Assembly (NCBI GenBank): GCA_963664535.1
Contig: OY761465.1
Coordinates: 1,573,602 to 1,637,601 of the forward strand
Reading direction: 5' to 3'
From: Candidatus Binatia bacterium
GTDB lineage: Bacteria; Desulfobacterota; Binatia; UBA9968; JAJDTQ01
Length of the DNA stretch: 64,000 bases
Shown here: positions 4,946 to 64,000 of the stretch, piece after piece
Layout of the letters: each line of letters opens with the position of its first letter
Position numbering within the stretch: the first letter of the stretch is position 1
Position numbers and translations under genes: made by a program
The notes under the pieces: generated by a model
What the model was told of the DNA's origin: nothing
Databases searched by the model: none
What the model saw: only the letters and a program-made list of their open reading frames with translations

Positions 4946-4989
4946 GCGGGCGCGCTTCTTACCGCGCCCCCTTTCCTCTGGATCCCGGA

Positions 4990-10444: not shown

Positions 10445-11110
10445 GCCTCCGGCCGGGTCTTCGAACCGGCGCAGAATCGCGTCCACGTCGACGCCCAACT
10501 CCCGGCCTTCGCGGATCACGCCTTCCTTCTGGCTGGCCCAGCTCTGGACGAACATGTTCTCCAGGAACTCGCGGTTGGCGGGGTCCTCGGCAAAACGGGC
10601 GAGCTTTTCCATGACCATGTCCTCGTGGCCTTCCTCATCGTCCACGATGTCCTTGGCGAGTTGCCGCACCACCGGATCGGGCGTCACGTCCCGCAGGTGC
10701 TGCATGAACACCACCGCGGATTTCTCGGCGATGTTGCAGAGCCGGAACGCCCGCACGTCGCCGGTGAGGAACTGACCGAAGTAGCCGTCGTAGGCATCCG
10801 CGGGAATGTCGTCGGCGGCGCCGCGGCCGTCGAGGTAGTCCTTGATCAGGGCGTAGTGCCTGTACTCGTCGGCGGCCTGCTCGGCCACGTGGGCGCGCTC
10901 GTGGGGCTCCAGCTCGCCGTATTGCAGCAACGCCCTGGTGAAGGCCACGCCGTGGGCCAGCTCCTTCTTGGCCTGCCGCTGCATCAGGCCGACGAACTCC
11001 GCGGTCCGAGGGTTCAACTCCGCCAGCGCCTTGCGGATGGCGATGACGGGCCCCTCCAACTCATCGTGGTATCGGCTCCACAGCGATTCGACGAATTCCC
11101 TTCCGGTCAT
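10442..11110 (-). CDS. ferritin-like domain protein
   Basis: An E...EExH-type diiron-like helix pattern is present (AEQAADEYRHYALI, EEGHEDMVMEKL). The start is MTGREF at 11110. The track ORF extends further upstream. Confidence 0.5.
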   Translation of the reverse strand: MTGREFVESLWSRYHDELEGPVIAIRKALAELNPRTAEFVGLMQRQAKKELAHGVAFTRALLQYGELEPHERAHVAEQAADEYRHYALIKDYLDGRGAADDIPADAYDGYFGQFLTGDVRAFRLCNIAEKSAVVFMQHLRDVTPDPVVRQLAKDIVDDEEGHEDMVMEKLARFAEDPANREFLENMFVQSWASQKEGVIREGRELGVDVDAILRRFEDPAGG

Positions 11111-11311
11111 GGCAATGATTCCTCCACACCCAGGCTGCCTCACACTAACGGGCGGTCCGGGCGGTGTCAATTGGGTGAAGTCCTGGTTGCCCAAGGCCGG
11201 GATCCACCGGCGACTCTTTGCCGCGGGTGCACGTACTGCTACAAGAAACACGAAACAAACACTTCGACTCACGGACACACACCGGCTCGATTCCGAAAGG
11301 AGACTGGACAT

Positions 11312-21889: not shown

Positions 21890-21975
21890 GGATGGAACTC
21901 ATGGTGCAGAATCGAGGCAGTGGATGCAAGGAACACCCGTCATCCCGGATCCCGGGTCACGCCCGGGGCAAGCTA

Positions 21976-22134
21976 GTGTCCTGTCCCACGTAATTCTTTA
22001 CCAAGATGCGCAGGATTTCTTGTTGTCGGCAAGGCGCGATGACGAGCAGTGGCGGGCACCACGCGAGGAAGAGCAACGCAGCCGACGACAAGAAAGACAA
22101 GCAGATTGGTAAAGAATTACGCGGGACAGGACAC
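21976..22134. mobile_element. MITE (159 bp) with 29-bp terminal inverted repeats and a TA target duplication; related to the IS630-family element at 59971
   Basis: The left end is GTGTCCTGTCCCACGTAATTCTTTACCAA. The reverse complement of the right end is GTGTCCTGTCCCGCGTAATTCTTTACCAA (28/29 match). TA flanks both ends at 21974-75 and 22135-36. There is no ORF inside. Confidence 0.75.
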
Positions 22135-22273
22135 TAGGTCCGGGGTCCAGGCGACAGAGACTGGTCGGTGCATATCCCATCCGCCTTACGCGGCCTTCGA
22201 TGAGGGCGCCACGGTGATTCAAAGTTTGCGACTTCGGACCGTGATCGTGCTATATTCCCGGCAGGGTATCGCC

Positions 22274-40871: not shown

Positions 40872-41653
40872 GAACCTCCTCCCACATCACCGCCGAAGGA
40901 ATGCTGGCCCGTCTCGGCGTCAAGCAAGGCGCCCTGGGTGAGGCGGCGCTGGTGGCCGGCCCGCGGGAACGGGCCGCGCGGCTGCGCGCTTCCCTGGATA
41001 ACCCGCGCGAGACCCTCGCCTTCCAGGACTACAAGATGTACACGGGCGAACTGGACGGGCACCGCGTCACCGTCGGCAACGGCGGGCGCTACTCCGCGGA
41101 CACGGCCATCACCACCGAACTGCTGTGCGCCGCGGGCGTGGAGACGCTGGTGCGAGTGGGTAGCTGCGGGTCGCTCCAGGAAACCGTGAAGCTCGGCGAC
41201 ATCGTCATCGTCACGGGCGCGGTGCGCGGCGACGGCGCGAGCCCCCGCTACGTCACCGACGACTTCGACACGCTGTTCCGCCCGAGCGCGCGGGAACCGC
41301 ACGAAGGTGAGGCCCATCTCGCCCTGCCCCACCCGCGCGTGACGGAAGCGCTCACGCGGGCCGCCGAGAGCTTGGGCGCGCCGGTGCACCACGGCGTCGT
41401 GTTCACCACCGACGCCCTGTTCCGGGAAACCCCGCGACTCCTGGCCGGCCTCGAAGAGGAGGGAACCACGGCCATCGACATGGTGACCGCCGCCTTCCTC
41501 ACCGTGGCGCAATCCCAGGGCGCCCGCGCCGGCGCCATCCTCGCGGTGTCGGACGAATGCGTCAGCGGCAAGCTGGGCTTCCAAGGCCCAGCCTTCCGCC
41601 AGGCCGAACAACGAATCATGGCAATCGCCGTCAAGACGCTGGCGTGGCTGTGA
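40868..41653 (+). CDS. PNP/UDP-family nucleoside phosphorylase/nucleosidase
   Basis: The PNP_UDP_1 signature region is RVGSCGSL. The GTG start overlaps the addA stop (GTGA); an in-frame ATG alternative lies at MLARLG. Confidence 0.6.
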   Translation: MRTSSHITAEGMLARLGVKQGALGEAALVAGPRERAARLRASLDNPRETLAFQDYKMYTGELDGHRVTVGNGGRYSADTAITTELLCAAGVETLVRVGSCGSLQETVKLGDIVIVTGAVRGDGASPRYVTDDFDTLFRPSAREPHEGEAHLALPHPRVTEALTRAAESLGAPVHHGVVFTTDALFRETPRLLAGLEEEGTTAIDMVTAAFLTVAQSQGARAGAILAVSDECVSGKLGFQGPAFRQAEQRIMAIAVKTLAWL

Positions 41654-41684
41654 CCGCCAAACAGAAGCGTACCCCGCCCCACCT

Positions 41685-41766
41685 GGATTCCCGCTTTCGC
41701 GGGAATGACGGGAGAGGGATGCGCGAATGACGGGAGAGGGAGAATGACGGAAGAGGGATGCGGGAA
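41685..41766. repeat. composite short repeat: palindromic unit GGATTCCCGCTTTCGCGGGAATGAC plus 3 tandem 17-mers GAATGACGGGAGAGGGA
   Basis: The tandem 17-mers lie at 41703-41719, 41725-41741 and 41742-41758. The palindromic core is CCCGC-ttt-GCGGG. The reverse-complement copy is at 44031-44079. Confidence 0.7.
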
Positions 41767-41977
41767 GATCATCGCCGGTTGCAGAGAGATCGAGGAATTC
41801 GTACCGTCGAGCTTCGAAGAGGAGTTCACTATGGGTCGCGTGCCGGTCATTGCCACGAAGGGCCGGCCGTCACCGATCTGCTGGCAGAGGCGGTGCGTTG
41901 CCGGCGCACGACGCCGGACGGTGCGTAACGGGCCGCAACGCGCTCCGAACCGTCGCATTACGAAAAGGAGGAACACC

Positions 41978-43021
41978 ATGAAACCGTATCTCCGCTCCAT
42001 GCTCCGTGTAGCCTTGGCGACAGGCATCGCCGTGGTCGTCACGGCCGCGACCGCGGCGTCCGCCGCGGACTTCTACAAGGGCAAGACCATCCGCATCATC
42101 GTGGGCTCGGCTCCGGGCGGCGGCTTCGATACCTACGCGCGGCTGGTGGCCCGGCACCTCCCCAAGCACATACCGGGGGCCCCGAGGACCCTGGTGACCA
42201 GCATGACCGGGGCCGGCAACCTCATCGCCGCCAACTACATGTACAACAAGGCCAAGCCCGACGGCCTCACCATCGGCCACTGGGTGGGGACCCTGGTGCT
42301 GCAGCAGGTCCTGGGGAACAAGCGTGTCCAGTTCGATGCCCGGAAGTTCGAGTGGATCACCGTCCCCAAGCCCAGCTACACGGCCTGCATCGTGGCCAGG
42401 GACAGCGGCATCGCCAACATGGACCAGTGGCTCGCGGCCAAGAAACCGCTCAAGCTCGGCGGCATGGGACCGGGCAGCTCCATCTCGGACATTCCCCGGT
42501 TGCTGGAGAACATAACCGGGGTGCCGCTCCAACTGATCGAGGGCTATGGCGGCGCCGCCAGGATCCGTCTCGCCATCGAGAAGCGGGAGGTCATGGGCGG
42601 GTGCTGGAGTCCCGACGTCATCTTCTCGTACTGGCCGAAGCGGATCCCCGCCGGAGAGCTGAACTTCGTGATACAGGTGGGCGTCGGCAGACATCCCAGC
42701 TTCCCCAACGTCCCGAACATCCTGGAGTTTGCCAAGAACGACGCACAGCGGCAGTTGACGGGCGTGGTGGGCCGCAACGCCCACGAGATCCTGCGGGCCT
42801 TCTCGCTGCCTCCGGGCACCCCCAAGGACCGCGTGGAACTGCTGCGCAAGGCCTTCGCGGCCACCTTCAAGGACCCGGAGCTGCTGGCCGAGGCCAAGAA
42901 GTCCAGGCTCATCATCAACCCCATTCCCGGCACCCGGGTGGCTCAGGCGGTGAACGAGTTCTTCGAGCTCGACGCCGAGCTGATGGCCCGGTTGAGGGGC
43001 ATCCTGGTCCCGAAACAGTGA
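41978..43021 (+). CDS. TctC/Bug-family substrate-binding protein, paralog 3
   Basis: There is a signal peptide. PGGGFDTYAR and KPDGLTIGHW are present. An AAAGGAGG RBS lies upstream. Confidence 0.85.
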   Translation: MKPYLRSMLRVALATGIAVVVTAATAASAADFYKGKTIRIIVGSAPGGGFDTYARLVARHLPKHIPGAPRTLVTSMTGAGNLIAANYMYNKAKPDGLTIGHWVGTLVLQQVLGNKRVQFDARKFEWITVPKPSYTACIVARDSGIANMDQWLAAKKPLKLGGMGPGSSISDIPRLLENITGVPLQLIEGYGGAARIRLAIEKREVMGGCWSPDVIFSYWPKRIPAGELNFVIQVGVGRHPSFPNVPNILEFAKNDAQRQLTGVVGRNAHEILRAFSLPPGTPKDRVELLRKAFAATFKDPELLAEAKKSRLIINPIPGTRVAQAVNEFFELDAELMARLRGILVPKQ

Positions 43022-43061
43022 CGCGCGTCCGGCCGGGGCGGGCGGACGCCGAAGGGCGCGC

Positions 43062-43982
43062 ATGATCGTCGAGGTCCACTGCCATCCCTTCGGGCCGCCC
43101 GCCTACCGGGACCTGCGCGGCAGGATCCGCAGCGTCCCGGACCTGATAGGCTTCCGCCGCAACCATCCCGATCTCTACCGGGCCCGGGACACCGAGCCGC
43201 TGGTGGACTACGTGGACGAGCTGATCGCCGACATGGACCGGTACGGCGTGGACAAGGCGCTGATCATGACCACCGGGGGCTGCGACGGCCCGGACGAGAA
43301 GGACGAGAAGACCGCGGCGGCCGTGGCGCGGTATCCGGAGCGGCTGTACGGGCTGGCGAGCCTGGGGGAAGACTACTCGGGCAACGGCGTCTGGGAGAAC
43401 GCGCCGGCGCTGCGGGCGGCCGCGCCCGAGCAGATCGCCGACCGCATCGGGCGGCTGGGCTTCAAGGGCATCGGCGAATCCCACGGCGGCCCTTTCACCA
43501 CCGAGACCCACCCGGTCAAGATCGCCGACGACCTGCGCCCCATCATGGAAACCCTGGCCGGCTACCGGGTGCCGCTGCTCATCGCCACCGGCTGGACCCA
43601 GTTCCCCGGCCGCATGTACTACGCCGACCCCATCTACGTGGACGAGATCGCCGGACGCTACCCCGATGTCCCCATCGTCCTCACCAAGATGGGGCGGGCC
43701 ATCCAGCACTACTTCGAGTCGGCGCTGATCGTTGCCATGCGCAACCCCAACGTGTATTTCGATACCACTTCCACCACCGCCGAGCACCTGCGGCGGGCGG
43801 TGGAGACCATTGGCGCCGGCCGCATCATGTTCGGCACCGACTGGTCACCCACTTGGCGGTGCGTGGAGGTGCCCGAGCCGCTGTACCCGGCCAGGCTCAG
43901 GGTCGTGCGGGAGTCAGGCATCTCGGAGGACGACGTGGAGCAGGTGCTGTGGAAGACGGCGGTGGAGTTGTATGGATTGTGA
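43062..43982 (+). CDS. amidohydrolase-2 family TIM-barrel metal-dependent hydrolase
   Basis: The N-terminal metal-binding motif is MIVEVHCHPF. The C-terminal motif is GTDWSP. It is 306 aa. Confidence 0.65.
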   Translation: MIVEVHCHPFGPPAYRDLRGRIRSVPDLIGFRRNHPDLYRARDTEPLVDYVDELIADMDRYGVDKALIMTTGGCDGPDEKDEKTAAAVARYPERLYGLASLGEDYSGNGVWENAPALRAAAPEQIADRIGRLGFKGIGESHGGPFTTETHPVKIADDLRPIMETLAGYRVPLLIATGWTQFPGRMYYADPIYVDEIAGRYPDVPIVLTKMGRAIQHYFESALIVAMRNPNVYFDTTSTTAEHLRRAVETIGAGRIMFGTDWSPTWRCVEVPEPLYPARLRVVRESGISEDDVEQVLWKTAVELYGL

Positions 43983-44030
43983 AAGAAGTATGGATCGTGA
44001 AGGAATGAGACCCGCGGAACGAGACCCGCA

Positions 44031-44079
44031 CCCGTCATTCCCGCCCTCCTCTCCGTCATTCCCGCGCAAGCGGGAATCC
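44031..44079. repeat. second copy (opposite orientation) of the GTCATTCCCGCGMAAGCGGGAATCC / CCCTCYCCCGTCATTC repeat family
   Basis: The sequence is CCCGTCATTCCCGCCCTCCTCTCCGTCATTCCCGCGCAAGCGGGAATCC. It is inverted relative to 41685-41766. Confidence 0.7.
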
Positions 44080-44127
44080 AGGAGGGGCGGGGAACGGGGG
44101 CCGTATCAACAAGAGGAGGATTCCATC

Positions 44128-44886
44128 ATGCGTTTGGACGGTAAAGTCGCGATCGTGACGGGCGGCGGCATCGGCATCGGCCGCGCCTACTCCAAGGGGC
44201 TGGCGCGCGAAGGCGCCAAGGTCGCCGTGGCCGACATCCAGGTGGAGGCCGCCACCCAGGTGGCGGAGGAGATCAGGAAGGAAGGCGGCGATGCCATCCC
44301 CGTGGCGGTGGACGTCGCCTCGCCCGAGAAGACCCGCGAGATGGCGGATGCGGTACTGAAGGAATACGGCCGCATCGACGTGCTGGTGAACAACGCGGCG
44401 CTATACACGGCGCTCACGAAAAAGTCCTTCATGGAGATCGATGAGGACGAATGGGACCGGGTCATGGCGGTGAACGTCAAGGGTCTGCACCTGTGCGTGC
44501 AGGCGGTCTATCCGGCCATGAAGGAGCAGGGCAAGGGCAAGATCATCAACATTTCCTCCGGCACGATCCTGGGCGGGACGCCCATGTTCCTCCACTACGT
44601 CACCTCCAAGGCCGGCGTGCTGGGATTCACCCGGGCGCTGGCGCGGGAGATCGGCCCCGACGGGATCAGCGTCAACTCCATCATGCCCGGCCTCACCATA
44701 TCCGGCGACAGCCAGGACGGCGTCACCACCCCCCAGCAACTGGAGAACCGGCGCAAGAGCCGCGCGTTCCAGCGGGACCAGTACCCGGACGACCTGGTGG
44801 GCACGGTCATCTTCCTGTCGTCCGATGACAGCGACTTCGTCACCGGCCAGTCCATCAGCGTGGACGGCGGCCAGCACATGCACTGA
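44128..44886 (+). CDS. SDR family oxidoreductase
   Basis: The Rossmann motif is GKVAIVTGGGIGIG. NNAA and S-Y-K catalytic elements are present. Confidence 0.8.
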   Translation: MRLDGKVAIVTGGGIGIGRAYSKGLAREGAKVAVADIQVEAATQVAEEIRKEGGDAIPVAVDVASPEKTREMADAVLKEYGRIDVLVNNAALYTALTKKSFMEIDEDEWDRVMAVNVKGLHLCVQAVYPAMKEQGKGKIINISSGTILGGTPMFLHYVTSKAGVLGFTRALAREIGPDGISVNSIMPGLTISGDSQDGVTTPQQLENRRKSRAFQRDQYPDDLVGTVIFLSSDDSDFVTGQSISVDGGQHMH

Positions 44887-46242: not shown

Positions 46243-47313
46243 CTACTCCGGATACAGCGGCGCCTTGTACACCGTCCCCGGCACCACGACGCCGCCGGCC
46301 GGCCGTTCCCCTTCCTTCAGGTGGGAGAAACGGTCGCTGAACGCAGGCGGCAGCGGCCGCCCGCCGGGTGTGCCGAGCCATAGACGCAGGAGATTGCGAC
46401 GGCGCTCGGGCTCCGGGTAGTCCTCGAACTCGGTGCGCGAATGGGCGGTGACGTGGTTGTGCAATATCTGCACGTCGCCCCGCAGGAACTCCATGTCGTA
46501 CGACAGCTCATTGCACAGATCGGCGAAGAGGGTCAGCGCCTCCTTCAGGGCCTCGGTGTGGCGCGGCAACTGCTCGAACCGCTGGGCCGAACGGACATAG
46601 GTGCCTCCGGCGCTCACGGTGAGATAGTCTTCGTAGAAATTGAAAATGGCGAGCTGCCACCACGGGTCCTTGCCCTCCGGGACCTCGCCGCGGCGGTCGC
46701 GGTAGATGGGGGCGGCCAGCTCCGCCACCAGCTCGGGCCGGCGCTTCAGCATCTCGTTGTAGACGTTGAGAGTGCTCGTGAACCGGCTGCTGCCGCCGGA
46801 CTTGGCCGGGTGCAGGCACATCAGCACCACCAGGTCGCAGGCATCGCAGTGAAAGGGCAGCATGTCGTGGGTCTGGTAGCCGCGGTGCTTGGGGTTCTTG
46901 AGGGTACCGCCGAGATCGGCCACATGACCTAGCAGATGTCCCTTGGAGTTCTGGGACACGGGCTCGCCGAGGAAGAGGCCGATGCCCCAGAAGGCGATGG
47001 CGGACTGCAGGCGGCTGTAGCGATGCACCGGCACCCCGCGTATGAGCGACAAACCGCGACCGTCGACGACGTCGGAAGCAATCTCGTCGAGCCGGTCTCC
47101 CAGGGTCGAAAGCACGAAGTCGTCGCGGGTGATGTCCAGGATGTCGAGCCCGCGTTCCTCCACCCGCGCCACGGCAGCGTCCAGCTCCGCGACCTCGCTC
47201 TCGGTCAGCGGGTGTATCCAGCTCTGGTCAGAGGCCAGATCTTCCGCGGTCCAGGCCGCGGGGTCCACCACGGGCTGATTCAGCACGGCCGGTTGTCTGA
47301 TAACGTTCAGCAT
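46243..47313 (-). CDS. TauD/TfdA-family Fe(II)/2-oxoglutarate-dependent dioxygenase
   Basis: A HxD...H facial-triad context is present (THDMLPFHCDA...H). It is 356 aa. Confidence 0.65.
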   Translation of the reverse strand: MLNVIRQPAVLNQPVVDPAAWTAEDLASDQSWIHPLTESEVAELDAAVARVEERGLDILDITRDDFVLSTLGDRLDEIASDVVDGRGLSLIRGVPVHRYSRLQSAIAFWGIGLFLGEPVSQNSKGHLLGHVADLGGTLKNPKHRGYQTHDMLPFHCDACDLVVLMCLHPAKSGGSSRFTSTLNVYNEMLKRRPELVAELAAPIYRDRRGEVPEGKDPWWQLAIFNFYEDYLTVSAGGTYVRSAQRFEQLPRHTEALKEALTLFADLCNELSYDMEFLRGDVQILHNHVTAHSRTEFEDYPEPERRRNLLRLWLGTPGGRPLPPAFSDRFSHLKEGERPAGGVVVPGTVYKAPLYPE

Positions 47314-47347: not shown

Positions 47348-49495
47348 TCACAGGTTCTCGACCTTGGCGATGCGGCACGGCAGCCCGCGTGTGTCCGCCG
47401 ACCCCGTCACCGGGTCCCACGGCCCATCATAGCGCATGGCGGCGTTGATGTTCACCTCCAACGCACCACGGTGAGGCGCCTCCGCCTCCGGATACCACCA
47501 GCCCATGCCGGTGCGCGCCACCCCCGGCAGCGTCGCGTCCGTGACGCGGACCTTCAGGCGGCAGCGGCCCGGCCCGCCGGCCGTCTCCACCCATACCCAG
47601 TCGTTCTCGGCGAGACGGTACCGCGTGGCGGTCTCCGGGTGCAGTTGAAGCCACGGGTCCGGCGACACCTTGCGGGCCCAGCCCTGGTCCCGGAACCGCG
47701 AGTGGTGGTAGGTGCGCTCCCGCACGCCGGTGAGCAGCGTCAACGGATAGGCGTCGCGCACCGCAAGCGTCTCGCGCTCCGCCCGGGTCGGCGTGTAGTC
47801 CGGCAGCGGGTCCAGGCCCAACTCGGCGAGGCGCTCGGAATAGAGTTCTACCTTGCCGGTCTTGGTCTTGAACCCGGCCTTCTCGAAATCCCCATAGGTG
47901 AACGGGAAGTTCGCGTACCCCTTCTCCCGCATCTGCTCCACGGTGACGCCGCAGTCGCCCAGCAGGAACTCGTTGAACTCGATCTTGGTCTCCCAAGGGA
48001 TGAAGCGCCGCGCCTCGGCGACGCCCCGGGCTTCGATGCGCCGGGCCAGGTCGCGGGCGATGCGGAAATCGCCCCGGGCCTCGCCTTGGGGCTCCACCGC
48101 CGGCTGGATCAGGCTGAGGCACGGACCGGAGCCCTCCAGCGAGACTTCCTCGTCCTCCAGCCCGGTGGTCTTGGGCAGCACGAGGTCCGCGTACTCCGCG
48201 GTCGGGTTCATCATGTGGGTGGCCACCGCGAAAAAATCCAGGGACCTGAGCGCCTCCAGGGTCTTCGGCGTATCGGGATAGGTCACCACGATGTTGACGC
48301 CGCTGACGTACATGGCGCGCACCGGGTACGGCTTGCCGCTGAGCACCGCCTCGATGACCGACGGGTTGTGACAGGCGGTCTGCCAGCCTTCGGGTCCCGC
48401 CCACAGCGGGAACCGGTCCGCGCCGATGGTCTGCTTCTCCACCTCCAGGGGCAGACGGAACTCGGGCTTGTGCAGCACTTCGATGTAGTTGGTGAATCCC
48501 GCCGGCTTCTTGGCGCGGCGATTGCCGCCCTCGCGGTCCAGGTTGCCGCTGATCGCCACCAGGCAATGGAACGCGCGAAAGGTCTGGACGCCGGCGCTGA
48601 AGGCGTCGATGCCGTGCCCGCTCACGAAGCAGGAGGGGCCGTCCGCGTAGTACTCCGCAGCCTTCTCGATGTCTGCCCGCGGCACCCCGGTCAACTCCGC
48701 GGCGCGTCCGGCAGGATACTGCGCCGCCCGCTCCACGAGCGCGTCGAAGCCGTGGCACCAGCGCTCCACGAACTCACGGTCGTAGCGGCCATGCTCCACC
48801 AGCCAGTGGATCATGGCCAACCCGATGGCCGCGTCCGTGCCCGGCCGCGGCCGCAGCCACACATCCGCCATGGTGGCCGCAGGGGTTTCGCCCGGATCGA
48901 TCACGACGACGCGCGCACCCTTCGCCTTGGCGCGCTTGAGCGCCTGCCACTGCGGCGGGTCGGCCGCATACGGATTGCGCCCCACCACGAGCGCGCAACG
49001 GGTATTGTCGATATCCTCGCCCTTGCCGATGGCCAGCCCCGTGATCCGGTCGCTCAACGCACGGCACCCGCCGCAAAGGTCCTGGTTCATCATCCAGTTG
49101 GGCGACCCGAAAGCCCGCAGGAGCAGCGCCACCATGACCCCGCGGCTGAAATGCGCGTTGCTCACCGCCCCGCAAAGCGCCTTCGGCCCATACCGCTCCC
49201 GCACGGCCAGCATCGCCTCCGCCATCTCGTCCAGCGCCTCGTCCCACGACACCCGCTGCCACCGCCCCCCGCCCCGCGGCCCGGTGCGCTTCATCGGATA
49301 GAGCACCCGGTCCGGATGATAGGTCAACTCCGGCAACCCCCGGATACCCTTCACGCAGAACGCCCCCAGCGACGCCGGATGCTCCGGGTACGGCGACACC
49401 TTGGTGACCCGCCCGTCCTCGACGGTGACCAGCGATCCGCAATGGGCGCTGCATTCCCAGCAGGTGCTGGGGATGATGGCTGTGCCGTTGTTCAT
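47348..49495 (-). CDS. molybdopterin-dependent oxidoreductase, DMSO-reductase family (cytoplasmic, N-terminal 4Fe-4S)
   Basis: The N-terminal Fe-S motif is CWECSAHCGSL...C. Mo-bisPGD domains and the C-terminal beta-barrel follow. There is no Tat signal. Confidence 0.8.
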   Translation of the reverse strand: MNNGTAIIPSTCWECSAHCGSLVTVEDGRVTKVSPYPEHPASLGAFCVKGIRGLPELTYHPDRVLYPMKRTGPRGGGRWQRVSWDEALDEMAEAMLAVRERYGPKALCGAVSNAHFSRGVMVALLLRAFGSPNWMMNQDLCGGCRALSDRITGLAIGKGEDIDNTRCALVVGRNPYAADPPQWQALKRAKAKGARVVVIDPGETPAATMADVWLRPRPGTDAAIGLAMIHWLVEHGRYDREFVERWCHGFDALVERAAQYPAGRAAELTGVPRADIEKAAEYYADGPSCFVSGHGIDAFSAGVQTFRAFHCLVAISGNLDREGGNRRAKKPAGFTNYIEVLHKPEFRLPLEVEKQTIGADRFPLWAGPEGWQTACHNPSVIEAVLSGKPYPVRAMYVSGVNIVVTYPDTPKTLEALRSLDFFAVATHMMNPTAEYADLVLPKTTGLEDEEVSLEGSGPCLSLIQPAVEPQGEARGDFRIARDLARRIEARGVAEARRFIPWETKIEFNEFLLGDCGVTVEQMREKGYANFPFTYGDFEKAGFKTKTGKVELYSERLAELGLDPLPDYTPTRAERETLAVRDAYPLTLLTGVRERTYHHSRFRDQGWARKVSPDPWLQLHPETATRYRLAENDWVWVETAGGPGRCRLKVRVTDATLPGVARTGMGWWYPEAEAPHRGALEVNINAAMRYDGPWDPVTGSADTRGLPCRIAKVENL

Positions 49496-50355
49496 GGCGT
49501 TATTGCCGGTAATCGACGGGAGCCTGAGAAGCTTCCTTGCTCCCTTTCCCTCCAGGAGAGGATCAGGTGAGGGCCGACAGCCTCCTCCGGACCTTCGATC
49601 TGGATGCCGAAGAACTCCAGCCCTCCATCGGCTTCAATCTCGACGGAATAGTCCCACCCGTGGACTTCAAACTCGAACAGCACGCCGCCCGCAAGAGTCG
49701 GAAAAACTGAAAGGGCTCCGGCCAGCGAGGGGCGTTGTCTGAGAAAAGTCTTTGCCATCTTGATGGCTTCATCGGATGGCGCAGAGCCTTCACCATCATG
49801 CCACCCGTCCTGCAGGTTTCCGAGATCGGTCAATCGTTCCATACAACGCATCAGCTGGTAAGTTTCCCGTACATGGGTGATGAGGGCTTTTCGACGGTAA
49901 CTGTCGAGAAAGACAACATTTCCGTCAGGATCACGCCGGTCTGGAAACTCGATCCTTTCCTGGTCGCGCAGACCGGCGCCAAATTTGTTAAGGGCACGGA
50001 TATGCTCAGAGGAGAGTGCTGGGAACCGGTCTTGGCCGGCGCCATCGATCAGGCCGACTAGATCCTTGAAGGACTGATCGACAATCTCTTCGATCTCGTC
50101 CGTGAAACCCGGCAATGTTGTATGCGCTTGTTCCAGGCTCCAATCGAGTTTTGGAACTGCACTCCCATCCTCGATCCCGACCAAGTCAAGTGAAATGCTT
50201 TTGTCGAACCCTTTGGGGAGGCGTTCACGGTCGGCATGCGACTGTCGCCAACGATCCTTGGCGTAGGCAACCAGCAAGTCGCGGAAAGCAGTCAGATCGG
50301 CTAGCACTGTCGTCGGCAGGCGCGGGCCTTCAAAGCGTGCCCCGACATAACGCAA
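49492..50355 (-). CDS. hypothetical protein (287 aa), lower-GC, translationally coupled to the molybdoenzyme
   Basis: The ATGA overlap with the downstream gene is at 49492-49495. There is no recognisable motif. GC is about 57% against a backbone of about 68%. Confidence 0.45.
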   Translation of the reverse strand: MRYVGARFEGPRLPTTVLADLTAFRDLLVAYAKDRWRQSHADRERLPKGFDKSISLDLVGIEDGSAVPKLDWSLEQAHTTLPGFTDEIEEIVDQSFKDLVGLIDGAGQDRFPALSSEHIRALNKFGAGLRDQERIEFPDRRDPDGNVVFLDSYRRKALITHVRETYQLMRCMERLTDLGNLQDGWHDGEGSAPSDEAIKMAKTFLRQRPSLAGALSVFPTLAGGVLFEFEVHGWDYSVEIEADGGLEFFGIQIEGPEEAVGPHLILSWREREQGSFSGSRRLPAITP

Positions 50356-50704
50356 CTCGAATATTTTCCGTCCAGTAGGCAGGTCGGTATCTCCAGACCG
50401 CGCAACTCAACTGTACCCTTAACCAGATACCACCGGACAAGCCGGACTTCAAAGTTCAGAGGCAGGCTTCCTATGTAAGGGAATGTGGTAAGGTGATCTG
50501 TAGGGTGGTTTCTCATGACAGAAATGGAGACGTGGATCCTTCATACACGCAAGTCGGCGTCTACCAAATGGCCCGAATTGCCGCCAAGGATAGCAAGTGA
50601 CCCACGAGGCTGCCGTATACGGCGACGGTTCAGTTTCGACCCTCGACGAGGCACTTGAGGCCCTCCAATCCCTCTCCTTGCCGGACGAAGACAAAGGGTA
50701 GTCC

Positions 50705-52281: not shown

Positions 52282-52304
52282 AAGGGAGGTTTCAAACCCT
52301 CCCG
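52282..52304 (+). terminator. hairpin GGGAGGtttcaaaCCCTCCC after the lectin gene; its right arm begins the ~1.4 kb duplicated segment
   Basis: The stem is 6 bp. The second copy at 62292 lacks the left arm. Confidence 0.3.
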
Positions 52305-52532
52305 TCATTCAAGAGCAGCCATGCTCAGGCATACGCTTGTATCGCCAATAAACATGTGATTTAAGCAGGTTAAGATCGTTTGATACTGCCAAACCACGCC
52401 GTCTCCCACACTCCACTGCGCTCCGATTCCTTCTCTCGTGTTGATTGTGGGGTTGACTATTTCCTGGTCCACGCCTATCATACCCGTGTTTTCCGGTCTC
52501 CCAGCCGATACCCGAATTCGCGAGGTAACCCC

Positions 52533-53795
52533 ATGCAACACGCCGCAAAACTCGTCGCCAAAGTCAAGCTCATGCTGACCAAGAGAACGGTAGACGCTCT
52601 TGAGTCCGAAGACAAGCCCTGGATCGCCTGGGATGACAAGCTGACCGGATTCGGTGTGCGCGTCCACCCCTCCGGAGCCAAGTCCTTCGTCGTGAACTAC
52701 CGTGCCGGCAACGGCGGGCGCAAGGCGCCCAACAAGCGCGTGGTGGTGGGCCGTGTCGGGCGGGTTACCCCGGACCAGGCCAGGCGTCTGGCCCAGGAAC
52801 TCCTGGGGCGCGTGGCCGCGGGAAACGACCCCGCGGGGGAGCGCGCAGAGGCGCGTTCTGTGCCGACCCTGGGAGAGGCGTGCAAGGACTACATGGAGTC
52901 GGGCCATGGGCGCGCGGCCAGCACCGAGCGGGGCTATCGCCGGTATACGGCCTTGTATCTCGGCGACTGGCTGTCCCGCCCACTGGATGCCATCACCCGC
53001 CGGGAGGTGGAGAACCGGTTCAGGTTCCTTACCGAGCGCCACGGAGAGATGCCGGCCAACCAGTGCCTGTCGTTCCTTCGGTCGGTGTACCGCAGGCCCT
53101 GCGTGGACTACGAGGGTCTGCGCAATCCGGTGGAGCAGTGGCTTGCGGCCGGAGGGCGCTACCACCGGAAGACACGGCGGCGGATATCGTCTCCGGCCGA
53201 GGTGCTGCCGTGCTGGCGGAAGGGGCTGGAGGCGGAGGTGGGCAATGCGGTTCACCGGGACGTGGTTCTGTTTGGGCTCTACACGGGGATGCGGCTTGGA
53301 GAGGTCGTGCCGCTTCGGTGGGAGGATGTAGACCTGGATGCCGGGCTTTTCCGGGTGGAGGAGACCAAGACCGGGGCGCCGCTCGAGTTGCCGGTGACGC
53401 GGCAGCTTGGAGAGATACTGGCGCGGCGGCGGGCGGAGGGCCACACGGTTGGGGAGGAGCTTCGCGTGTGGGTGTTTCCGTCGCCGATGAGCGATTCCGG
53501 GCACGTGGAGGAACTCTACCGACACTACGGGGCCATCGGGCGAGCAGGCGGAGCGAAGTTCTGGTTTCACGCGTTGCGGAACTGCTTCATCACGGTGGCG
53601 GAGCGGGAGTTGATGCTGCCGCGGTCGTTGACGAAGCGTCTGGTGAACCATGCCCGGCCCGGTGACGTGACCGAGGGCTACGCCGCGGACTGGACGGTGG
53701 AGCAGTTGCGAGAGCCTGCGCAACGGGTCGCGAACCGCATCGATGAGTTGATGGCCCGACAGGTGCCGACCGTGCCTCACTCGCTTGGGAAGTGA
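52533..53795 (+). CDS. int: tyrosine-type site-specific integrase, P4-like with N-terminal DUF4102 arm-binding domain
   Basis: The DUF4102 region is DKLTGFGVRVHPSGAKSFVVNYR. The catalytic residues are present (R in GMRLGEV, HALRN, and Y in the GYAA tail). Confidence 0.85.
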   Translation: MQHAAKLVAKVKLMLTKRTVDALESEDKPWIAWDDKLTGFGVRVHPSGAKSFVVNYRAGNGGRKAPNKRVVVGRVGRVTPDQARRLAQELLGRVAAGNDPAGERAEARSVPTLGEACKDYMESGHGRAASTERGYRRYTALYLGDWLSRPLDAITRREVENRFRFLTERHGEMPANQCLSFLRSVYRRPCVDYEGLRNPVEQWLAAGGRYHRKTRRRISSPAEVLPCWRKGLEAEVGNAVHRDVVLFGLYTGMRLGEVVPLRWEDVDLDAGLFRVEETKTGAPLELPVTRQLGEILARRRAEGHTVGEELRVWVFPSPMSDSGHVEELYRHYGAIGRAGGAKFWFHALRNCFITVAERELMLPRSLTKRLVNHARPGDVTEGYAADWTVEQLREPAQRVANRIDELMARQVPTVPHSLGK

Positions 53796-54016
53796 CATGC
53801 GCGCGACGAGGCACATCCAACGGCTCCCGGAACAGCAGGTTGTGTCAAACAGGACCCTGGCGGCGTGATCCTTTACACCGGAATACACCTTACCTCCGCC
53901 GCCTCCCTGTCCCACAACCAGGACCACTTCATGATCCAACAAGAGTCTGGCGGCGGAAGGCGGTGGTTGCGCAGAGAGCCGTGGGTCAAGGGTGCGAATG
54001 GCGCCACCAGCATCGG

Positions 54017-55717: not shown

Positions 55718-56977
55718 TTAATCGGATAGCTGGTGCGACGGATCGAGACCAGGAGGAACTGGTGGACCGGAGAGTCTGGCCTGTGGTTCAATCTGCGAGG
55801 GCGGCGTCTCGGCCCGAAAGCCCATGGCGCAGGCGATGACTGCAGCCGCCTGCTTGGCCGCACCCTGTAGCGCGATATCGTCGAGGTGGGCGTAGATGGC
55901 GGTTGTGGCGCGCTTGCGGTGTCCGAGCAGGCGGCCCACCGTGGTCAGCCCTACGCCGTTCATGACACCCTGGGAGGCGTAGGTGTGGCGGGTGTCGTGG
56001 ATTCGGACGCCTTGCAACCCGGCTTCCTGGCGAATCGCGCACCAGAAGCTGTAGAGCCTGCCTGGGGTGAGATCCTCGGGGAACACCCGCCCGTCGCCCT
56101 CCAGGCGGGGAAGGGCCGCGAGCACCTTTACCGCTTGCGGTCCGAGCCACAGGGTGCGCGGTCCGGTCTTGGAGTCCGGGAGGCGGACGCTTGCGCCGTC
56201 CCCGGACAGCTTCCCGATCTCGTCCCACCGGAGGTTCAACACCTCGGAGAGCCGCGCGCCGGTGAGGGTGAGGAGGTGGAGCGCAGCCACGGGCCAGGGA
56301 CGCTTCGCACGGCATGCATCAAGGACTGCGCCAAGGCGTTCCAGTTCTTCGCGGGTGAGATGGCGCGCGACCGGTCTTCTGGGGTTCATGACGATGTTGG
56401 CGCAGGGGTCGGGAGCGTCCTCGGACACCTCGCCCCACTGGCGCGCCGTGCGCAGCATGGCGCGGAGGATCTCGAAGGCGCGGTTGGCCGCGCCGGGCCG
56501 GTCGACGCTGGCGGAGTCGAACCACGCGGAGACCCGCGCATGGTCGATGCGATCGAGCCGCAGTCGGCCGAAGGCGGGCATGAGCCTCTGCCGCATGTAG
56601 CTGTCGTGGGCTTTGAGCGAGGACGGCTTGCAGCGGCTCCTGAGCCGCTCGCGGTAGCGGGCGGCGAAGTCGCCGAAGAGCGCCGGCCTGGGCCTGTGGC
56701 CGGGCACCGTGGCGTCGCCTGCCCAGATACGGGCGAGCACTTTGGCAGCCTCCCTTCGCGCATCGGCGAGGGGGGTCTCTGGGAAGCGCCCGAGGGTGAG
56801 CTTGCGCATCCGGCCCCGCACGCGGGTCTGGACGATGAAGGAGCGCACGCCCGAGGGCTGCACCCTGACTCCGAAGTGAGCGAGCGCGCCGTCCCAGAGC
56901 GTGTACTCGGTCCGCCTCGGCTTGGCGGCTGCAATGGCGCTAACGGTCAACGGCTTCTTGCCCTGCCTACGATCCAT
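55718..56977 (-). CDS. tyrosine-type integrase, P4-like (DUF4102 N-domain), downstream member of a tandem pair
   Basis: The DUF4102 region is WDGALAHFGVRVQPSGVRSFIVQ. The catalytic residues are present (R in GARLSEV, HDTRHT, and Y in AIYAHL). A GGAGG RBS lies upstream. Confidence 0.85.
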   Translation of the reverse strand: MDRRQGKKPLTVSAIAAAKPRRTEYTLWDGALAHFGVRVQPSGVRSFIVQTRVRGRMRKLTLGRFPETPLADARREAAKVLARIWAGDATVPGHRPRPALFGDFAARYRERLRSRCKPSSLKAHDSYMRQRLMPAFGRLRLDRIDHARVSAWFDSASVDRPGAANRAFEILRAMLRTARQWGEVSEDAPDPCANIVMNPRRPVARHLTREELERLGAVLDACRAKRPWPVAALHLLTLTGARLSEVLNLRWDEIGKLSGDGASVRLPDSKTGPRTLWLGPQAVKVLAALPRLEGDGRVFPEDLTPGRLYSFWCAIRQEAGLQGVRIHDTRHTYASQGVMNGVGLTTVGRLLGHRKRATTAIYAHLDDIALQGAAKQAAAVIACAMGFRAETPPSQIEPQARLSGPPVPPGLDPSHQLSD

Positions 56978-58115
56978 GACGCCCCTCCTTCCTGCTTCCG
57001 GTCATCGCCGCCTCAACGATGCCGCCGATGCGGCCCGCAGCCTCCCGGACGTGGTCGTCGGCAAGGTGAGCATAGCGGTCGGTGGAGGCGATGTCCGCAT
57101 GGCCGAGCAAGCGGCCCACCGTATAGAGGTCGATGCGGCTCATGACCGCGTGGGAGGCCAGAGTATGACGGAAGTCGTGTATGCGCACGTCCTCCAGACC
57201 CGCCAGCCTTCGCAGCTTCTGCCAGCGAAGCCCGAGATCGTTCATCGGCCCGGAGCCCGTTGTGTTGGGAAAGACGTAGCGTGAGACACGCGGCACTCCG
57301 GAGAGCACCGCTCGGGCGGGTGGCGGAAGCTGGATGGTCTTCGGGCCGGTCTTCGAATCCGGCAACAGCGCCCGGGCGCCGCGTATCCAGTCCCACCGAA
57401 GGCCGGTGATCTCGGACGACCGCGCGCCGGTGAACAGCAGGAGACGGATCACGGCGACGGCCTGACTGTCCTCGGCATGGTCGAGCACGAAGCCGAGGCG
57501 TTTCAACTCCTCCACGGAGAGGAACCGCTCCCTGGCCCCAGTCCTGTAGCGGCGCATGTTACGGCAGGGGTTGGAGCCCTGGGGGCGAATGTCCCACAGT
57601 TCGGCCTGGGCGAGCATGACGGAGAGCACGGGCAGCGCTCGGTTGGCGGTGGCGGGAGAGCTGCTCAGGGAATCGAACCAGCGCTGCACGTCGGCGCGGG
57701 AGATTTCGGGGACGCGCATGAAGCCGAAGAAGGGCAGGAGTTGGTTCTTGAGCACGGAGCTGTTGCTCTGGCGGGTGGAGGGCTTCCAGCGCCTGGACTG
57801 GCGGCGCATGAATTCGTCCGCGAAGTCCTGGAACAGGGGTCCGGCCTTGTGCTCGGCCGTGGCGGCGTCGATAGCGGCGACGGCTCGATCACGCGCCTGG
57901 GCGGCGGTCAGTTCAGCGGTCGTGCCGAGGGTGAGATTGACCGCGCTCGGGGCTCGCTTCACGCGGACGAAGAAGGTCCTCGAATCGTCGGCTGCGATCT
58001 TGAGGCCGAAGGCGGGCAGGGTGTGATCGAGGACGATGAGCGGGCGCTTCCGGTGCCTGGGCTCGGCGAACTTTCGGTTGATGGTTCTTTCATTGAGATT
58101 TGCGAAGATGCGCAT
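56967..58115 (-). CDS. tyrosine-type integrase, P4-like (DUF4102 N-domain), upstream member of the tandem pair; overlaps the next gene by 11 nt
   Basis: The DUF4102 region is LPAFGLKIAADDSRTFFVRV. The catalytic residues are present (R in GARSSEI, HDFRHT, and Y in DRYAHL). The start is MRIFANL at 58115, with a GGGAGG RBS. The track ORF extends to 58160. Confidence 0.8.
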   Translation of the reverse strand: MRIFANLNERTINRKFAEPRHRKRPLIVLDHTLPAFGLKIAADDSRTFFVRVKRAPSAVNLTLGTTAELTAAQARDRAVAAIDAATAEHKAGPLFQDFADEFMRRQSRRWKPSTRQSNSSVLKNQLLPFFGFMRVPEISRADVQRWFDSLSSSPATANRALPVLSVMLAQAELWDIRPQGSNPCRNMRRYRTGARERFLSVEELKRLGFVLDHAEDSQAVAVIRLLLFTGARSSEITGLRWDWIRGARALLPDSKTGPKTIQLPPPARAVLSGVPRVSRYVFPNTTGSGPMNDLGLRWQKLRRLAGLEDVRIHDFRHTLASHAVMSRIDLYTVGRLLGHADIASTDRYAHLADDHVREAAGRIGGIVEAAMTGSRKEGRHGS

Positions 58116-58303
58116 GTGGCTGCCTCCCATAGTTGTTCCCTCGAATGCCACCGGTTCCAAGGAAACAACGGCGGCGGTTCACGGAAGGAGATGCAGCCCG
58201 TGCAGGGACAGGGGGGTGAGTGGCCGTGACGCCCTAACGCAGCGTTAAAGCGGAAGAAATCGTCCGTATGGCTGGTCGGGAAAGTCTCGCTCAAGGCATC
58301 CCG

Positions 58304-59970: not shown

Positions 59971-61124
59971 GTGTCCTGTCCGATTAATTAGTTGAAGAAC
60001 AATGGAGTGTGTCGTACCATGGGAAGAAAGGACAGGAGGGCACCATGGCACGACCCCCAGCGGCGATCGTTTTGAGCGAGGAGGAGAAGGCGGAGCTAGA
60101 AAGATGGAGTCGGCGGCGCAATACGCGAGCGGGTCTTCATCTACGAGCGGGCGTGGTTTTGGATTGCGCGCGAGGTTACACCGGGGAGGAGGTGGCGAAG
60201 CGACACCACACGAGCCAGCAGACGGTGTCGAAGTGGCGGGGGCGGTTCGCCCGAGAGCGACTGGCGGGACTGTCCGATGCGGTGCGAAGCGGCCAGCCGC
60301 GCAAGCACAACGACGTACGGGTGCAGGAAGTGTTGGACGCGACACTGAATCGACGGCCGAAGCATGCCACGCACTGGAGCGTTCGGAGTTTATCCGAGGA
60401 CCTGGATGTGCCACGGGATTTCGTTCATCGTGTATGGCGGGCATTCGGGCTCAAACCTCACTTGTCTCGGAACTTCAAGCTATCCACCGATCCGCACTTC
60501 ATCGACAAGGTGCGGGACGTGGTGGGTCTTTATCTGAATCCGCCGGACAACGCGCTGGTGTTGTGCGTGGATGAGAAAAGCCAGATTCAGGCATTGGACC
60601 GTACCCAACCCGGTTTACCGCTGAACTACGGCACACCCGAGACCCGGACCCATGACTATCGGCGCTATGGCACCACCACGCTGTTCGCCGCACTGGAGGT
60701 GGCTACGGGTCGAGTGGTGGGCAAGCTGCACCGCCGGCACAGAAGCCAAGAGTTCACCGCTTTCTTGCGCCACATCGACTCGCAGGTCCCGGCCGCCTTG
60801 GAAGTCCACCTCATTCTCGACAACTACGGCACCCACAAGACCACCCAAGTCAAGAACTGGCTGTTGCGACACCCCCGATTCCACTGTCATTTCATCCCCA
60901 CCTACAGTTCCTGGATGAACTTGGTGGAGCGCTTCTTCGCAACCTTGACCGAACACCAGTTACGCCGCGGCACCTACCGCTCCGTGGTCGCTCTGGAGAA
61001 AGCCATACGAAATTACCTCGACCTGCACAATCAACATCCCAAGCCGTTTCGTTGGACCAAGTCCGCTGACGCCATCATTGACTCTGTCACCAGTGTTATT
61101 AAACGAATTAACCAGACACCACAC
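59971..61124 (+). mobile_element. IS630-family insertion sequence (1154 bp) with imperfect ~21-bp TIRs and a TA target-site duplication
   Basis: The left end is GTGTCCTGTCCGATTAATTAG. The reverse complement of the right end is GTGTGGTGTCTGGTTAATTCG (16/21 match). TA flanks both ends at 59969-70 and 61125-26. It contains a single DDE transposase gene. Confidence 0.7.
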
Positions 61125-61127
61125 TAG
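60045..61127 (+). CDS. IS630-family transposase (HTH + DDE)
   Basis: The N-terminal HTH is [21 protein letters not shown]. The DDE region spans [14 protein letters not shown] ... [10 protein letters not shown] ... [19 protein letters not shown] precedes the ATG at 60045. The stop lies within the right TIR. Confidence 0.85.
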
Positions 61128-62291: not shown

Positions 62292-63672
62292 GTTTCAAAC
62301 CCTCCCGTCATTCAAGAGCAGCCATGCTCAGGCATACGCGAGTCCGAAGACAAGCCTTGGATCGCCTGGGATGACAAGCTGACCGGATTCGGTGTGCGCG
62401 TCCACCCCTCCGGAGCCAAGTCCTTCGTCGTGAACTACCGTGCCGGCAACGGCGGGCGCAAGGCGCCCAACAAGCGCGTGGTGGTGGGCCGTGTCGGGCG
62501 GGTTACCCCGGACCAGGCCAGGCGTCTGGCCCAGGAACTCCTGGGGCGCGTGGCCGCGGGAGACGACCCCGCGGGGGAGCGCGCAGAGGCGCGTTTTGTG
62601 CCGACCCTGGGAGAGGCGTGCAAGGACTACATGGAGTCGGGCCATGGGCGCGCGGCCAGCACCGAACGGGGCTATCGCCGGTATACGGCCTTGTATCTCG
62701 GCGACTGGCTGTCCCGCCCACTGGATGCCATCACCCGCCGGGAGGTGGAGAACCGGTTCAGGTTCCTTACCGAGCGCCACGGAGAGATGCCGGCCAACCA
62801 GTGCCTGTCGTTCCTTCGGTCGGTGTACCGCAGGCCCTGCGTGGACTACGAGGGTCTGCGCAATCCGGTGGAGCAGTGGCTTGCGGCCGGAGGGCGCTAC
62901 CACCGGAAGACACGGCGGCGGATATCGTCTCCGGCCGAGGTGCTGCCGTGCTGGCGGAAGGGGCTGGAGGCGGAGGTGGGCAATGCGGTTCACCGGGACG
63001 TGGTTCTGTTCGGGCTCTACACGGGGATGCGGCTTGGAGAGGTCGTGCCGCTTCGGTGGGAGGATGTAGACCTGGATGCCGGGCTTTTCCGGGTGGAGGA
63101 GACCAAGACCGGGGTGCCGCTCGAGTTGCCGGTGACGCGGCAGCTTGGAGAGATACTGGCGCGGCGGCGGGCGGAGGGCCACACGGTTGGGGAGGAGCTT
63201 CGCGTGTGGGTGTTTCCGTCGCCGATGAGCGATTCCGGGCACGTGGAGGAACTCTACCGACACTACGGGGCCATCGGGCGAGCAGGCGGAGCGAAGTTCT
63301 GGTTTCACGCGTTGCGGAACTGCTTCATCACCGTGGCGGAGCGGGAGTTGATGCTGCCGCGGTCGTTGACGAAGCGTCTGGTGAACCATGCCCGGCCCGG
63401 TGACGTGACCGAGGGCTACGCCGCGGACTGGACGGTGGAGCAGTTGCGGGAGCCTGCGCAACGGGTCGCAACCCGCATCGATGAGTTGATGGCCTGACAG
63501 GTGCCCACCGTACCTCACTCGCCGGGGAAGTGACATGCGCGCGACGAGGCACATCCAACGGCTCCCGGAACAGCAGGTTGTGTCAAACAGGACCCTGGCG
63601 GCGTGATCCTTTACACCGGAATACACCTTAACTCCGCCGCCTCCCTGTCCTACAAACCAGGACCACCTCACG
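62292..63672 (+). repeat. segmental direct repeat of 52290-53930 (integrase region), ~98% identical, with a ~263-nt internal deletion
   Basis: The block 62292-62339 equals 52290-52337. From 62340 onward the sequence matches 52603 onward with scattered mismatches. Similarity ends near 63672/53930. Confidence 0.8.
62340..63497 (+). pseudogene. 5'-truncated, nonsense-mutated duplicate of the P4-like integrase gene
   Basis: It lacks the start codon and the first ~23 codons of the 52533 gene. It has a premature TGA (CGA->TGA) at 63495-63497 that removes the last 11 codons. Confidence 0.7.
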
Positions 63673-64000
63673 TAAAACTCCCCCAAATCCAGCCCGTCCA
63701 CCAGGTCGCTTACGTGGTGCGCCAAATGCCCCGCAGGTACCCACTCCGCCAAATCCGGCGGCATCAACAGCTTCTGCCCAGGTTCATACCCTCGATAGCT
63801 CGTTGGCACTCCCCTCTCCTTCCGCTCCTTGTCTCCTCCCGCTCCTCTTTATACTTTCTCCCTTGCCCGCTTTTCTACGGCGCAGACTCCTAGTTCCGGT
63901 ATGGTTATTATAAATGCAGTAGTTCGCGATTATTGCGAAAATCCGTCGGTTCATCAACTATCGACTTCTGTTGCTGTGATTGTCCCAATTCGCGTTTTCT

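Follow-up and report, generated by a model that had tools for sequence, protein, structure and literature searches.

Two copies of the dRS3/NTS/SRM hairpin repeat flank a TctC-amidohydrolase gene pair in a Binatia-like lineage

The 28-nt Neisseria Transformation Sequence (NTS), CGTCATTCCCGCGMAVGCGGGAATCYRG, encompasses the classical dRS3 repeat ATTCCC-N8-GGGAAT and is recognised by SsnA, a small single-domain GIY-YIG protein (PMC11893778; Nat Commun 2025). Binding of SsnA requires the hairpin to be single-stranded DNA (ssDNA) and is confined to one strand; the protein cuts a few nucleotides upstream of the hairpin and is inactive on double-stranded DNA and on RNA, the latter of which it does not bind (PMC11893778). 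Both the 5' CGTC and the 3' C of the NTS are required for cleavage and binding, cleavage in vitro also occurs when the hairpin halves are supplied separately or the loop is extended, and an NTS-gene-NTS configuration lowers transformation (PMC11893778). Homologous Ssn genes of many phyla are flanked by the NTS or by variants, termed Ssn-related motifs (SRM; PMC11893778). The same core is also the master sequence of the Neisseria 'REPIN', which Bertels and Rainey tied to a REP-associated tyrosine transposase (RAYT; bioRxiv 10.1101/2021.07.10.451892), and in Neisseria dRS3 is a target of filamentous-phage integration via a transposase-type recombinase (PMC1797815). Here, we describe two inverted copies of this hairpin, copies A and B, which flank a TctC-amidohydrolase gene pair in a 64-kb stretch of DNA (the window) from an uncultured Binatia-like lineage. 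They are members of the already described dRS3/NTS/SRM family and an ordinary new instance of it. With a probability of roughly 0.7, we consider them to be two independent, lineage-specific insertions of the repeat (dRS3; its doublet is the Neisseria REPIN) in two Binatia-like spacers.

Two copies of a described hairpin family

In the window, the palindrome ATTCCCGC-N4-GCGGGAAT is found at exactly two sites, 41687-41706 and 44058-44077, compared with 0.07 expected from shuffles of the 64 kb. These sites form the stems of copy A (41683-41710, minus strand; CGTCATTCCCGCGAAAGCGGGAATCCAG, with a GAAA loop) and copy B (44054-44081, plus strand; CGTCATTCCCGCGCAAGCGGGAATCCAG, with a GCAA loop), both of which agree with the NTS consensus at 28 of 28 positions, where PMC11893778 allows up to one mismatch for membership. 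On the element strand, the two cores read CGTCATTCCCGCG[A/C]AAGCGGGAATCCAG and show all sequence hallmarks of the family, with CGTC on the 5' side and CCAG on the 3' side of a GC-rich stem of 8 bp that closes a 4-nt loop. They also match the degenerate SRM pattern HGTCWYN(0-2)YYVSBRHN(0-5)WNVSBRGN(0-2)RNCYNB (PMC11893778), for which the window holds three matches versus 0.87 expected from order-1 Markov sequences. The third match, TGTCATCCCGGACTTGATCCGGGATCCAG at 4978-5006 on the minus strand, is an SRM-type hairpin of a different stem subfamily with the same GTC and CCAG flanks, surrounded by C/T-rich sequence on its 5' and G-rich sequence on its 3' side; it makes up the 3' tail (the last ~16 codons) of a glyoxalase open reading frame (ORF) at 4990-5424.

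A repeat finder pairs copies A and B as a 44-nt inverted repeat with 93% complementarity (41668-41711 and 44053-44096). The two lie 2341 nt apart in divergent orientation with their 5' ends facing inward, and including their flanks they extend over 41668-41766 (copy A) and 44031-44096 (copy B). Both reach ~17 nt farther outward than in an earlier sequence-only reading of this DNA, into a G-rich 3' flank of the form CCAGG-N-GGGGCGGGG. In copy A, this flank occupies 41668-41682 (..GTGGGGCGGGGTACG on the element strand) and in copy B 44082-44096 (GAGGGGCGGGGAACG); inverted-repeat and alignment analyses show it in both copies, and it is also common to copies in relatives and metagenomes. The sequence-only reading had proposed that inverted copies of a REP/MITE-like repeat bracket the gene pair. 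The inverted arrangement holds, the repeat being genuine and statistically solid, and the family assignment was right in kind, as the copies match known dRS3, NTS, and SRM hairpins exactly.

Both copies are intergenic, corresponding to 2 copies per 64 kb, and each is located 30-70 nt 3' of a stop codon within a string of co-directional genes. The 8-bp stem of either copy is present in the minimum free energy and the centroid ssDNA folds. Folding of the whole copy B region yields -27.6 kcal/mol with z = -3.3, while the corresponding value for copy A is not significant (z = -0.8). Because of this difference, an outer stem formed by the C/T-rich 5' units and the G-rich 3' flank is convincing in copy B only, and we refrain from treating it as general to the family.

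The breadth of the family is already known and was reproduced here. A scan of GTDB with one genome per species and the query GTCATTCCCGC-N4-GCGGGAATCC returned at least 120 loci, and among the matches listed the 25-mer core occurs in more than 20 phyla, including Proteobacteria, Chloroflexota, Bacteroidota, Planctomycetota, Nitrospirota, candidate phyla radiation (CPR) groups, a Nanoarchaeota metagenome-assembled genome (MAG), and others. The exact 25-nt NTS core is likewise found in at least 120 IMG/VR viral contigs; among those listed, some carry 5 copies and three have an adjacent ssn gene. Loci with the exact core in the Nanoarchaeota MAG, in several CPR MAGs, and in viral contigs comprise L079, L029, L037, L061, and L147-L266.

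Turnover of the repeats among syntenic relatives

Between the two copies lie three features on the plus strand. The first is the remnant of a class II aldolase (Aldolase_II) pseudogene at 41766-41935, which lacks its 5' part and has a 109-nt internal deletion when compared by blastn and tblastx to the intact genes of the relatives L121 and L122. It is followed by a gene for a TctC-family periplasmic binding protein (41978-43021; PF03401), which has an orthologue in L122, and by an Amidohydro_2 gene (43062-43982; PF04909; proteins P0001 and P0002 93-95% identical). Exact-protein look-ups returned no identical protein on record for the TctC protein or the amidohydrolase of the window. Because 41766-41935 is an aldolase remnant, the ORF 41705-43021 is a spurious upstream extension of TctC, whose true start is at 41978. 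The tandem array adjoining copy A, described below, ends at the exact truncation point of the pseudogene, and from 41766 onwards the window aligns inside the L121 and L122 aldolase genes. No compositional anomaly was found in the bracketed segment, its GC content of 65-70% being that of its flanks. Directly 5' of copy B, at 43970-44029 on the plus strand, Tandem Repeats Finder (TRF) detected a pair of short duplications in tandem, one of 18 nt x 2, which spans the amidohydrolase stop codon and is not seen at the matching junction in L122, and one of 14 nt x 2.

To compare the segment with its counterparts, we used five syntenic loci (L121, L122, L124, L126, and L267) identified via close homologues of the amidohydrolase and of a lectin gene, which together hold ~9 full NTS copies in ~90 kb. 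In the window, the stretch between the PNP and SDR genes consists of copy A, the aldolase remnant, TctC, the amidohydrolase, and copy B, with an NTS at both junctions. The closest relative, L122 (~90% nucleotide identity), has Aldolase_II, TctC, and the amidohydrolase at this position with an NTS at neither junction; its NTS elements are instead located in the spacers between SDR and Gly_reductase and between Gly_reductase and TauD. In the window, these same two spacers are 6 and 50 nt long and free of the repeat. L126 carries an NTS doublet between SDR and Gly_reductase and L124 an NTS doublet beside an IS630-type transposase gene, the PNP-SDR stretch being outside the coverage of both loci. 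In L121, this stretch consists of Aldolase_II and the amidohydrolase without TctC and is devoid of NTS. In L267, a Binatia chromosome, PNP adjoins SDR over a 145-bp spacer, and both Gly_reductase and NTS are absent.

Because the elements sit in different spacers of ~90% identical relatives, their movement or turnover is recent. The relatives differ in the bracketed segment as well, with gene gains and losses making the whole PNP-SDR stretch a hot spot. Their different positions, together with the NTS-free state of the same segment in L122, therefore identify the repeats as mobile occupants of spacers rather than as the ends of a cassette. The locus thereby provides a clean natural example of recent NTS gain or loss between ~90% identical genomes, with one copy at a gene-truncating deletion.

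Further features were noted in and around these loci. L122 carries a ~357-bp tandem triplication of the PNP 3' end with 37-nt inverted repeats (7334-8150), a long palindromic repeat of the type 'GTCCTGAGCGTAGCGA...GTCGAAGG' (10921-11135), and, at 12060-12107, an NTS whose loop and right arm are split by the 22-nt hairpin CCCCGATCGGGG, a nested insertion resembling a NIME-like mosaic. The window (46243-47313) and L267 have one TauD dioxygenase gene each, as opposed to a tandem duplicate in L122, L124, and L126. Region 49400-50700 of the window, between a molybdopterin oxidoreductase gene and a second Amidohydro_2 gene, has a GC content of ~0.55 versus 0.67; because the relatives hold differing genes there (an HTH_3/HigB toxin-antitoxin pair, a DDE_3 transposase, or AbiE genes), it represents another variable spot. 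An inverted repeat with 37-nt arms (21973-22009 and 22101-22137; 92% complementary, 91 nt apart) that is AT-richer than its surroundings lies between a leucyl/phenylalanyl-tRNA protein transferase gene and a glyoxalase-family ORF.

Protein partner, half-site arrays, and rival explanations

Among 260 motif-selected loci, seven have a GIY-YIG gene (PF01541) within ~150 nt of the motif, and the arrangement NTS(+)-ssn-NTS(-) is found in L086, L144, and L233. Unbiased clustering of 332 ORFs located at most 200 nt from the motif revealed the GIY-YIG family as the most recurrent one (6 independent loci) and no RAYT-like cluster. These recurrences independently support the published Ssn association, with no implication that the present host encodes ssn.

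By analogy to the biochemistry of the Neisseria and Wolbachia systems, the element strand would fold into a hairpin whenever the DNA becomes single-stranded, be it during replication, uptake, conjugation, or repair. A small GIY-YIG Ssn protein encoded elsewhere in the genome might then bind this hairpin and cut a few nucleotides 5' of the CGTC, which could affect recombination of motif-carrying DNA; Ssn is also a possible agent of the multiplication of the repeats. Given the inverted arrangement of A and B, in which the 5' sides point inward, each of the two strands would receive a single cut, located at the inner edge of copy A on the minus strand and of copy B on the plus strand. Such a cut would sever the TctC-amidohydrolase segment from one homology arm, an uncoupling that matches the transformation drop reported for NTS-gene-NTS configurations (PMC11893778).

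The tandem units next to both copies each represent the 5' half of the element, that is, GTC, the left stem arm ATTCCCGC, and a C/T-rich linker. In copy A, where the arm is degenerate, ~3 units of GTCATTC + (C/G)CGCA + TCCCTCTCCC of 17-22 nt each occupy 41711-41766 on the minus strand, as seen from TRF and the heptamer positions; TRF reports the array at 41699-41766 with a period of 22 nt x 3.3 copies and 76% matches and a nested 17-nt x 2.0 repeat at 41725-41758. Copy B has a single additional unit at 44031-44053 on the plus strand (CCCGTCATTCCCGC + CCTCCTCTC), whose left stem arm is intact and which, in the ssDNA fold, is base-paired to the G-rich 3' flank; its two GTCATTC heptamers, at 44034 and 44055, are 21 nt apart. 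The tandem units reported in the sequence-only reading are thus real, whereas their description as uniform 17-mers does not agree with these periods.

Half-site arrays recur in other carriers of the family. Among the GTDB matches listed, an extra GTCATTC is present on the same strand within 60 nt upstream of 15 of 162 copies (~9%), mostly at a spacing of 19-23 nt, versus 2 of 162 downstream. TRF detected arrays of up to 5.8 units (L154, 20 nt; L056, 23 nt; L032, 19 nt), and those containing half-sites were always positioned 5' of a complete hairpin and in the hairpin's own orientation. Their units take the form CGTCATTCCCGC plus a 7-11-nt pyrimidine linker, with up to ~6 units on the cleavage side of the hairpin, and they span Binatia, Chloroflexota, Betaproteobacteria, Elusimicrobia, and viral contigs. 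In a metagenome scan keyed on the 3' flank of the window copies, which yielded 20 loci, the composite of units, hairpin, and G-rich flank matched copy A with 84-88% identity across 60-88 nt in four (L135, L136, L138, and L142). Neither the half-site arrays nor the G-rich 3' flank is mentioned in the main text of PMC11893778, in which the word 'tandem' is absent, and we did not find the arrays described.

The tandem units are duplications of the cleavage-side half that most likely arose via slippage or repair at the cut site. That they are a footprint of Ssn-type ssDNA cutting and re-priming, or else functional multi-cut sites whose left arms compete for a single right arm, is a tentative suggestion to which we give limited credence; if true, the arrays would be a direct sequence record of how pan-bacterial hairpins multiply. 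Because SsnA cuts split-hairpin and extended-loop substrates (PMC11893778), the intact half-site of copy B could plausibly serve as a second substrate and cut site by pairing with the single right arm. The arrays may offer a handle on how NTS repeats are cut and propagated.

We considered three rival explanations, a RAYT-driven REPIN, a mobile cassette, and an RNA hairpin, and the data favour none of them. The hairpins might be non-autonomous and depend on a REP-associated tyrosine (Y1/HUH) transposase for their copying, with Ssn as an unrelated binder. The identical core ATTCCCGCGCAGGCGGGAATC has indeed been treated as a Neisseria REPIN linked to a Group 2 RAYT (bioRxiv 10.1101/2021.07.10.451892), and inverted doublets with their 3' ends facing account for 32 of 162 copies among the GTDB matches listed and also occur in L122, L124, and L126. 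A REPIN, however, needs two inverted REPs within ~130 bp that form one long hairpin, while the window copies are singlets in opposite, divergent orientation 2.3 kb apart. Neither the 40 window proteins scanned nor the gene tables of the relatives contain a Y1_Tnp (PF01797; RAYT) match, and it is GIY-YIG rather than RAYT that clusters near the motif. We regard copying by a RAYT as unlikely. A split REPIN, in which an insertion had separated the two halves of a doublet, was rejected, as the orientation of A and B is the reverse of that required. The hairpins could also act mainly as RNA, as terminators or mRNA-stabilising stem-loops like classical REPs, which are known to stabilise upstream mRNA; the repeat family would then simply be a ready supply of stem-loops. 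Both copies follow stop codons of co-directional genes at a short distance, and the palindrome folds on either strand. On the other hand, they lack a U-tract, a promoter and terminator scan of 41400-44400 was empty, and no Rfam family was detected in the whole window at gathering thresholds. Conservation moreover reaches into the flanks, which are non-palindromic, define the orientation, and would be dispensable for a simple RNA hairpin, the two copies are oppositely oriented relative to transcription, and SsnA does not bind RNA (PMC11893778), all of which makes a primary role as RNA improbable.

The inverted copies might instead be the terminal repeats of a mobile 2.3-kb TctC-amidohydrolase cassette, either composite-transposon-like or defined by recombination. 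In line with this, the 44-nt arms with 93% complementarity are positioned exactly at both junctions, the whole PNP-SDR segment is missing in L267, and Gly_reductase, which is likewise absent in L267, is flanked by NTS doublets in L122 and L126. Yet in L122 this segment occupies the equivalent site and neither junction has an NTS, L121 shows a clean TctC indel without NTS, and the left junction is a deletion scar within the aldolase gene rather than a transposon end. Transposase, target duplication, and compositional anomaly are all lacking, recombination between inverted repeats inverts a segment and does not excise it, the closest amidohydrolase in another context, that of L123, has no NTS core, and the orientation of A and B is opposite to that of the IS-like NTS(+)-ssn-NTS(-) unit. 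A cassette is very unlikely and the least probable of these explanations. As to the role in rearrangement that the sequence-only reading had suggested, the position of copy A at the aldolase truncation and the absence of the segment in L267 lend it some support, whereas the repeat-defined cassette is contradicted by L122 and L121.

Several observations also weigh against independent NTS/SRM insertion and its proposed link to Ssn. In the 64-kb window, no GIY-YIG or Ssn gene was found by regular-expression search, by tblastn with two Ssn queries (only noise, E > 0.5), or by Pfam analysis of 40 proteins, and the gene tables of ~110 kb of the relatives' loci contain no Ssn homologue. Ssn is described mainly from Pseudomonadati, with a known role limited to naturally competent Neisseria (PMC11893778). 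The mechanism of hairpin multiplication is undemonstrated in any organism, and Bertels and Rainey credit a RAYT for the same Neisseria sequence. With regard to the arrays, the origin of the half-sites is speculative, and the excess of tandem repeats of any kind 5' versus 3' of the motif is not significant (34 versus 20 of 311, p = 0.065), clearly one-sided arrays being only those that contain half-sites.

Island edge and comparison with known systems

The sequence-only reading had further placed a third partial copy at the edge of an integrase island and linked the motif to island and cassette boundaries. The 14-mer in question, CCCTCCCGTCATTC, is found at 52297-52310 and again at 62300-62313 as part of a perfect 48-bp direct repeat that marks the left edge of the island (52289-52336, plus strand; second copy at 62292-62339). 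This repeat contains only CCCGTCATTC and no NTS/dRS3 palindrome, fails the SRM pattern, and does not belong to the family. The CCCTCCC within it comes from a terminator-like hairpin following the lectin gene, GGGAGG-TTTCAAAC-CCTCCC (52284-52303, plus strand), of which it forms the 3' arm and which is not a family member either. A homologous hairpin, GGGCGGG-TTTGAAA-CCCGCCC (~10565-10585), follows the lectin gene in the island-free sites of L124 and L126, so that the arm is part of a conserved structure, in agreement with folding. The stems of the lectin hairpins show compensatory changes between relatives (GGGAGG/CCTCCC versus GGGCGGG/CCCGCCC), and the island repeat begins within the loop. GTCATTC is found 7 times in the window versus 7.3 expected; five of these lie within copies A and B, and the other two represent one duplicated island edge. 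We regard the resemblance of the island edge as coincidental, even if, strictly speaking, a decayed half-site could still underlie it. The proposed third copy thus dissolves into a terminator arm and a heptamer at chance frequency, and the motif occupies varying intergenic positions with no special link to island boundaries, which is essentially the pattern that the sequence-only reading had named as speaking against its own proposal. Removing this false lead leaves no new cassette or island-boundary signal.

The island extends from 52289, after the lectin gene, to the end of the window at 64000, its right end being beyond the window. It encodes a P4-like integrase (ORF 52380-53795), two integrases on the minus strand (55718-58160), and an IS630-type DDE_3 transposase (60009-61127). 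A second, 5'-truncated integrase copy at 62340-63670 is 98.6% identical to 52602-53931 and preceded by the same 48 bp. A tRNA or tmRNA serving as island target was not found. At the corresponding empty site in L124, L126, and L267, the lectin gene has a convergent Amidohydro_2 gene as its downstream neighbour.

What the locus adds to the family is modest, comprising the host lineage, presence/absence polymorphism in close relatives, a copy at a gene-truncating deletion, and recurrent 5' half-site arrays. The Binatia-like lineage joins the carriers of NTS/SRM and supports the existence of one 25-28-nt sequence across distant phyla and viruses.

Among described repeat classes, miniature elements such as MITEs (e.g. 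Correia elements) resemble copies A and B in being small, non-coding, multi-copy, and inserted in spacers. They differ in that the window copies have no terminal inverted repeats bounding the unit and no target-site duplication, the conserved unit being a single 28-nt hairpin with asymmetric flanks. With REPIN-RAYT and E. coli REP/BIME elements, the family shares short GC-rich extragenic palindromes, doublets in relatives, vertical persistence, and recognition as ssDNA hairpins. Unlike these, the window copies are singlets with no RAYT found, and their best-supported partner is a GIY-YIG nuclease rather than a Y1 transposase. Classical REPs typically carry a GT[AG]G head, which is absent from the NTS family.

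Closer still are the dRS3 repeats and NIMEs of Neisseria (PMC1797815). The window has no RS elements bounded by successive dRS3, and where Neisseria dRS3 serves as a phage integration target, the island in the window has P4-like tyrosine integrases and an att site without the dRS3 palindrome. The window copies nevertheless contain ATTCCC-N8-GGGAAT and adjoin variable gene content, and relatives show mosaic intergenic arrays, such as the L122 NTS interrupted by a 22-nt hairpin. Compared to the NTS/SRM-Ssn system (PMC11893778), the window differs in lacking ssn, in its Binatia-like host, which is absent from that study and belongs to a lineage not known as naturally competent, and in the tandem 5' half-site arrays and lineage-specific G-rich 3' flank of its copies. 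It is alike in the same 28-nt consensus, in the hairpin, in its intergenic and orientation-defined placement flanking variable genes, and, in independent loci sampled, in a GIY-YIG gene beside the motif.

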